From NCBI RefSeq assembly GCF_057098645.1, contig NZ_CM169472.1: 64,000 nt of DNA; one strand, given 5' to 3'. Made by a program: the position numbers and the translations under genes. The notes beneath the pieces are model-generated. The model was not told the DNA's origin. It ran no database searches and was given only the letters and a program-made list of their open reading frames with translations. The stretch's first letter is position 1. Every line of letters begins with the position of its first letter. This document shows positions 17,957 through 18,849 of the stretch, one piece after another.

Positions 17957-18849
17957 TGACTCGTCCCGTCACGATCTTCAGCAATATGCTGAAGCATCGT
18001 GGCGGTATAACGATGATTTCTGATTGAATAAAGATATTCCTGCATATACATCGGCCTGTGCGGTGCATCAAAATATTTCAGCGTTGCCGGATTCACCAGT
18101 CGCCAGGCAAAATGCGGGATCACCGTCAGAAAATGTCCGCGCTCCACGGCGCTGATTTTGGCCATAAAACTGTAGGGACGATAAATAATGGTTGGATTGA
18201 TCCCACAAGGTCGCATATTCGCATCAATCATTGCTTCGAAGTTGGCCCGGTTCTGAAAGCGCATTTGTAGCCAGGGCAGCTCCTGAAGCAGCTCTTGCTC
18301 TTGACGCTCTTCATAACGGCGAGAAACGAGAAAGCCTAATCGCAGCGGTGGTAGTTCACTGATAGTCAGGTTTTCCAGTTCCTGAACTCGTGCAGATACA
18401 TGCTGTGGGGAGATAATAAAATCTAACTGACGGTCAAAAAGATTATCGATAACGCCGTTTTCGCTGAACTCAACTGGCTGGGCGGTCACGCCTTCATACT
18501 TATCTCCGAGACTAATCAACTGATCGAAAATAATTGTCGGATAAGTATTATCTATGCCAATCACAATTTCTCGTGAACGACGCCCTGAGTTATGGATTTC
18601 ATTATCAATCGCAGAAAGCCGTTGATAAACCGGGAACAGTTTTTAATACAGTTCCTGTCCGGCTTTATTGAGACTGATATTATTATCTTTACGGGTAAAT
18701 AGCGTATAGCCAATTTGTTCTTCCAGCGCGGCAATGCTTTTACCAAATGGCGAAGCCGTCATATGGATTTTTTCTGCCGCCCGGGCAATATTATTGGTTT
18801 GCGCTAATAAAATGAAATTGCGCATCTTTTTCGAAATAAAAATGTCCAT
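17953..18849 (-). pseudogene. ygfI: LysR-family regulator YgfI interrupted by in-frame ochre codon (TAA at 18643-18645, minus strand)
   Basis: HTH ORF 18643..18864 (MDIFISKKMRNFILLAQTNNIARAAEKIHMTASPFGKSIAALEEQIGYTLFTRKDNNISLNKAGQELY) and effector-domain ORF 17953..18564 are in the same frame, separated by one stop. Confidence 0.8.

Follow-up and report, generated by a model that had tools for sequence, protein, structure and literature searches.

An in-frame ochre codon interrupts srsR (ygfI), a LysR-type regulator gene, in the O145:H28 lineage of Escherichia coli

The srsR locus and its premature stop

The window, the whole stretch of 64,000 nucleotides analysed here, carries the genes argO-yggE-srsR-scpC-scpB-meaB-scpA-argP in an order that is the same in K-12 and in F2_81 (Table 1). 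The gene that the earlier note had identified as ygfI is now named srsR, and its orthology to the K-12 gene is established by alignment, by its RefSeq name and by its position at the locus. The note had placed it next to the sbm operon, now scp; it does adjoin scpC, the last gene of that operon, but the two are convergent, tail to tail with a 4-nt overlap, and srsR is not divergent from the scp (sbm) promoter.

Table 1. Features of the srsR region and of the loci compared with it. Positions are those of the window, except where a locus handle (L) precedes them.
Feature	Position	Strand	Remarks
srsR (ygfI/dhfA) pseudogene	17953..18849	-	full 897-nt LysR-type regulator frame, one interruption
Premature ochre TAA, codon 69 (Q69*)	18643..18645	-	C to T, gene nt 205
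srsR codons 1-68	18646..18849	-	sole part translatable from native start; complete winged-HTH
srsR codons 70-298 and native stop	17953..18642	-	linker and LysR substrate-binding domain; untranslated from native start
Upstream srsR ORF	18643..18864	-	73 aa from upstream ATG; 68 aa from annotated start 18849
Downstream srsR ORF	17953..18564	-	203 aa from internal GTG (codon 96, 18564)
Intergenic region upstream of srsR start	18850..19015		166 nt
scpA (sbm, methylmalonyl-CoA mutase)	12588..14670	+	62-bp deletion, junction 14335/14336
meaB (argK/ygfD, mutase-associated GTPase)	14663..15658	+	W277*, stop 15491-15493
ORF annotated "LysR substrate-binding domain-containing protein"	11120-11350	-	231 nt
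Tandem ~300-bp units	8136-8435 and 8527-8827		90% identical
ibsC genes	8237-8296 and 8629-8688		type I toxin; one in each tandem unit
Hypothetical gene	20691-21620		930 nt
IS3-family element	36509-37818		1,310 bp; orfA 108 aa, orfB 295 aa
scpC-scpA fusion deletion (other genomes)	L008:6845-7900, L012:2401-3456, L013:2401-3495		
srsR of O157:H7 (PV15-279)	L007:7492-8388		W193*
srsR of WP3-W18-ESBL-07	L008:5952-6848		S92* and W193*

On the minus strand, the site reads ...AAT AAA GCC GGA CAG GAA CTG TAT TAA AAA CTG TTC CCG GTT TAT CAA CGG..., with the peptide NKAGQELY*KLFPVYQR across the stop. Translation of the complete gene yields 299 codons with one internal stop in addition to the terminal one (MDIF...NKAGQELY*KLFPVYQRLSA...DGTSH*), and both readings show the in-frame TAA that had been reported from the letters. 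The two pieces in the list of open reading frames lie in one frame and together have the length of the 298-codon reference, in agreement with the translation. The nonsense change itself is at window position 18645 and is seen on the plus strand as G to A.

The earlier note had considered a change of CAA to TAA likely, and comparison with F2_81, PE164 and K-12 bears this out as a single substitution. In the 101 nt round the stop, the window differs from the intact alleles of F2_81 and PE164 in a single column, with C there and T in the window. Over the whole gene, one of the 897 nt differs from F2_81 in an ungapped alignment (99.9% identity), this sole difference being the same C to T, which is also the sole nucleotide difference from the intact F2_81 allele across 1,001 bp. 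Relative to K-12 srsR, the window gene shows six nucleotide differences over 897 ungapped nt, and the sole amino-acid change is Q69 to stop. In the 166 nt of intergenic sequence that precede the start, the window matches F2_81 completely and K-12 at all but one position. K-12 and F2_81 each contain a single intact 897-nt srsR and have the protein WP_000350807.1 in common; a single gene of this length is found in most E. coli, so that the two-gene reference that would have spoken against a lesion does not exist in K-12. Given 99.9% identity to an intact, annotated and experimentally characterised gene, the frame is a genuine gene and the stop a genuine lesion of it. As read from the sequence, the nonsense codon is the sole lesion of the window srsR, and since no further substitution separates it from F2_81, the allele is young.

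The stop falls between the two domains of the protein, as had been proposed. In the K-12 protein, Pfam HTH_1 covers residues 8-65 (E = 1.9e-15; the window translation is identical there) and LysR_substrate covers residues 89-283 (E = 3.5e-12), which places codon 69 in the inter-domain linker. The window encodes identical residues 70-298 in the same frame, but 3' of the stop. An uninterrupted 298-codon frame is missing, and the window srsR is an orthologous locus and not a functional member of its family. A second LysR-related sequence, also present in K-12, lies in the window between rpiA and argP and looks like the vestige of a further LysR-type regulator lost long ago.

The scp operon of the window is damaged as well. 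The deletion in scpA has a TCGCC direct repeat at its flanks, removes the cobalamin (B12)-binding GQDGHDRG segment and shifts the frame, and the stop in meaB results from TGG to TAG (G to A at 15492). The genes scpB, scpC, yggE and argP are intact, and three of the five adjacent genes (scpA, meaB and srsR) are broken in the window lineage.

Distribution of the allele and other losses of srsR

Comparisons were made against 5,426 complete E. coli genomes. Of these, 26, all of O145:H28 type, contain a perfect match to a 61-nt query with the stop at its centre, and genomes with the wild-type C show at least one mismatch to this query. The central base of this query leaves two 30-mers, and megablast would still seed on the TAA in most haplotypes; the count of 26 carriers is a fair estimate more than a mere lower bound, though not a rigorous one. 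A 1,001-bp query round the stop matches all but one of the 5,426 genomes, with 100% identity in 25, and most of these 25 are named O145, O145:H28 or O145:NM. The stop, which might have failed to be reproduced, is thus present in 26 independent complete assemblies. Q69* is fixed in the O145:H28 lineage, and close relatives are intact.

The lesion is already flagged in public records and is not new to the databases. RefSeq/PGAP labels srsR a pseudogene with an internal stop in RM13514, RM13516, UTME-3 and 95-3192, that is, in every carrier annotation that was read. Other public annotations treat the pieces as proteins: the 73-aa piece is called on 465 contigs, named O145:H28, and a 68-aa version is also called, while the 203-aa piece is called on 749 contigs, the original RM13514 and RM13516 GenBank entries among them. 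A search for literature on loss of ygfI/srsR in EHEC found no relevant paper.

Among the carriers, the window differs from RM13514 at 6 of 20,921 positions (1..20.9 kb) and is identical to it over 17900-18900, and it is collinear with the O145:H28 strain RM13516 save one extra IS element. This element, absent from both RM13514 and RM13516, has the ends TGAACCGCCCCGG.../...CCGGGGCGGTTCA and looks like IS629. A 3-bp overlap of the BLAST alignments suggests a target duplication, and the insertion lies ~10 nt inside a prohibitin-family gene, whose start is cut off. RM13514 in turn carries an 11.2-kb P4-like satellite prophage (integrase, helicase, psu, ogr/delta, icd-like, primase) at the position corresponding to window ~20921-20925, where it splits a hypothetical gene and is not at a tRNA; the site is empty in the window, RM13516, UTME-3 and F2_81. 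A lipoprotein pseudogene of RM13514 is likewise missing from the window. Farther from srsR, each of the two tandem units of the window has its own ibsC, and a single ibsC is found at this locus in the WP3-W18-type genomes examined.

The gene has been lost repeatedly elsewhere in the species. In O157:H7, srsR contains W193* (TGG to TAG, nt 578) on a haplotype that is 17 nt from the window allele and 4 positions away from its own closest intact relative, E2865. A large non-EHEC lineage carries S92* together with W193*. Its haplotype and that of O157:H7 differ at 21 positions, yet the G to A at nt 578 is identical. By 61-nt queries, TAG at codon 193 occurs in 845 complete genomes and S92* in 552, which leaves, by subtraction, ~290 complete genomes for W193* of the O157:H7 type. 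With the 26 O145:H28 genomes included, the three nonsense alleles inactivate srsR in ~16% of the complete E. coli genomes. Many further truncated forms of SrsR are found in protein clusters, among them a 96-aa form of Shigella sonnei on at least 1,000 contigs. The recurrence at nt 578 could reflect selection, mutational coincidence or a short recombination tract, which in the last case would measure less than ~90 bp and be confined to nt 550-638. Because independent nonsense alleles (W193* and S92*+W193*) stand beside many truncated forms, srsR is dispensable in nature.

The lesions of the operon are distributed in their own way. The genomes with the meaB stop are precisely the 26 with the srsR stop, and 25 of the 26 also have the scpA deletion. 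The exception, UTME-3, has both stops and an intact scpA, from which it follows that the scpA deletion arose after the stops. In 1,113 of the 5,426 complete genomes, a large deletion has taken out most of the operon and fused a 3' remnant of scpC with the 5' part of scpA. About half of these 1,113 genomes keep an intact srsR (e.g. W224N and RIVM_C036204), and srsR is broken in WP3-W18-ESBL-07 and 2020C08-115, which share the deletion. A rule by which loss of srsR is coupled to decay of scp was considered and rejected, as srsR is dead and the operon intact in O157:H7 and operon-deleted genomes with an intact srsR exist.

Expected product of the allele and alternative explanations

Expression of SrsR in K-12 rises ~25-fold as cells enter stationary phase, and the protein binds to TCAGATTTTGC boxes (PMC9181523). 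[quoted passage not shown] A second study connects YgfI with glycerol and formate metabolism and with activation of dhaKLM, which its passages on YgfI name as the bound target (PMC9068703).

The product left by Q69* is expected to be much reduced. A single transition, CAA to TAA, would stop translation of SrsR after residue 68, and what remains would be a bare winged-HTH, devoid of nearly all of the linker helix and of the whole effector/oligomerisation domain. In LysR-type regulators, the wHTH is followed by a long linker helix through which the DNA-binding domains dimerise. These proteins work as dimers of dimers, and they need this helix as well as the effector/oligomerisation domain to do so. 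Alignments to LTTR structures (CbnR, 1ixc/5xxp; 3hhg) show homology that runs well beyond residue 69 into the linker, and the 68-aa product retains ~3 residues past the winged-HTH. By analogy with these regulators, the fragment, forming neither dimer nor tetramer, should neither hold its sites stably nor activate target promoters. The srsR promoter region is unchanged, and the gene is therefore probably still transcribed in the window lineage, judging from this region; a 68-aa HTH peptide may be made and may keep some residual DNA binding. The first in-frame candidate for a restart is the GTG at codon 96, which is preceded by ...CACGAGAAATT and has GAG as its sole, weak Shine-Dalgarno-like element. 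Within the 64-kb window no tRNA gene, and hence no suppressor tRNA, was found. The window srsR is very probably a young pseudogene, a loss-of-function allele specific to the EHEC lineage E. coli O145:H28. O145:H28 would then have no functional SrsR, and activation of the K-12 type that depends on it would be lost, affecting stationary-phase stress genes (fucAO, bluR, cdgI and dinJ) and dhaKLM.

There is a negligible chance that sequencing or assembly introduced the stop by mistake, or that a single laboratory stock mutated while the gene is truly intact in the organism. The carriers come from cattle, humans, lettuce, ice cream, creek water and veal, from the USA, Belgium, Japan and Canada, and from different laboratories, and the fragment products are called on hundreds of public contigs. 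An identical 61-nt context in 26 complete genomes from separate groups means that the stop is not a sequencing error. It is extremely unlikely that srsR functions as a split gene, with the 68-aa HTH acting alone, as a weak binder or competitor at SrsR boxes, and/or with the effector domain translated from codon 96 and keeping its ligand-binding role. The whole wHTH (Pfam 8-65) is indeed kept behind an upstream region that is the same as in the intact allele, and an isolated LysR DNA-binding domain of ~70 residues can fold, as one crystallised by itself illustrates (PDB 4pzj). However, the few residues left past the wHTH do not provide the linker helix that LTTR DNA binding needs for dimerisation, and the GTG at codon 96 has no more than a GAG as possible ribosome-binding site. 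Both pieces count as proteins in some annotation pipelines, whereas PGAP calls a pseudogene. No regulatory output is known for an effector domain that lacks its DNA-binding domain. Q69* is moreover restricted to one young lineage, and truncation elsewhere occurs at codons 92, 193 and many others, so the split point is not conserved; break points that differ by lineage indicate the decay of a dispensable gene and argue against a conserved functional split.

Two further explanations accept that function is lost and differ in its cause. It is very unlikely that srsR decayed as the controller of the adjacent operon, with regulator and operon lost as one unit. The breakage of scpA, meaB and srsR together in O145:H28, the two stops shared by the same 26 genomes and the lack of most of the operon in the S92*+W193* lineage would fit such a history, but all four combinations of intact and defective srsR and scp occur, O157:H7 being W193* with an intact operon, so the two losses show no tight coupling. 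Nor does the locus resemble that of a regulator and its target, as the divergent promoter layout and the operon-promoter binding sites expected of an LTTR that regulates its neighbour are absent at srsR-scp. With up to two mismatches allowed, no SrsR box TCAGATTTTGC is found in the scpA promoter region (12386-12587), and the window as a whole has 27, against 24.1 expected and thus without enrichment, which gives no local autoregulatory or operon site. The operon lies outside the ten gSELEX target loci of SrsR listed in the results section of PMC9181523, and the passages on YgfI in PMC9068703, where dhaKLM is the bound target, do not name sbm/scp among the YgfI targets. The clustering of the three lesions in O145:H28 is a curiosity, and any functional link between them is hypothetical. 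Selection for the loss under an EHEC or bovine-reservoir lifestyle, perhaps by way of more biofilm, is compatible with loss of function and is unlikely rather than far-fetched. Q69* and W193* arose independently in two EHEC lineages on different haplotypes, the same G to A at nt 578 lies on two haplotypes 21 positions apart, and the K-12 deletion mutant forms more biofilm (PMC9181523); the same mutant, however, pays a cost in H2O2 survival (PMC9181523), and srsR is also lost in the large non-EHEC lineage and in Shigella, which makes the loss not specific to EHEC. If O145:H28 is without CPS-53, which holds yfdO/yfdP, it would lack part of the regulon, and selection on srsR would be relaxed. The broader form of this idea is distinctly unlikely: that inactivation of SrsR is recurrent and pathoadaptive, having struck separately in O145:H28 and O157:H7 and, through the nt-578 change, on an unrelated second haplotype, with regulation of stationary-phase stress, biofilm and fucose/dihydroxyacetone rewired for persistence in the bovine or human gut.

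Significance and comparison with known systems

Taken as a loss-of-function allele, the window srsR is an ordinary pseudogene that is already annotated, and it has little importance for the window alone. Its wider value is modest and concerns users of K-12 regulatory networks as a template: since srsR is non-functional in O145:H28, in O157:H7 and in a lineage of ~550 genomes, K-12 regulon predictions should not be transferred to them. The combination of Q69*, meaB W277* and the 62-bp deletion in scpA could serve to mark the O145:H28 lineage. The parallel inactivation in two main EHEC lineages and the recurrence at nt 578 are mildly interesting.

The closest reference is srsR of K-12 (b2921; ygfI, with dhfA proposed), which shares with the window allele the locus between yggE and scpC, the 897-nt frame and the domain layout. 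In K-12 the gene is uninterrupted and has been shown by experiment to be active as a LysR-type activator, while the window allele stops at codon 69. The srsR of O157:H7 is similar in that it belongs to an EHEC lineage, owes its stop to one transition and is annotated as a pseudogene with an internal stop, but its lesion at codon 193 is inside the effector domain, its haplotype is another one and the adjacent scp operon is intact. The S92*+W193* srsR of WP3-W18-ESBL-07 and 2020C08-115 is likewise inactivated by nonsense codons next to a defective scp operon; in contrast to the window, it has two stops on an older haplotype, 28 nt away, and the operon was lost by one large deletion. More generally, the allele resembles the nonsense pseudogenes of host-restricted or pathogenic E. 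coli and Shigella, in which a single lineage-fixed lesion lies in a non-essential regulator, and nothing distinguishes it from these except that it is very young and carries no secondary mutations.
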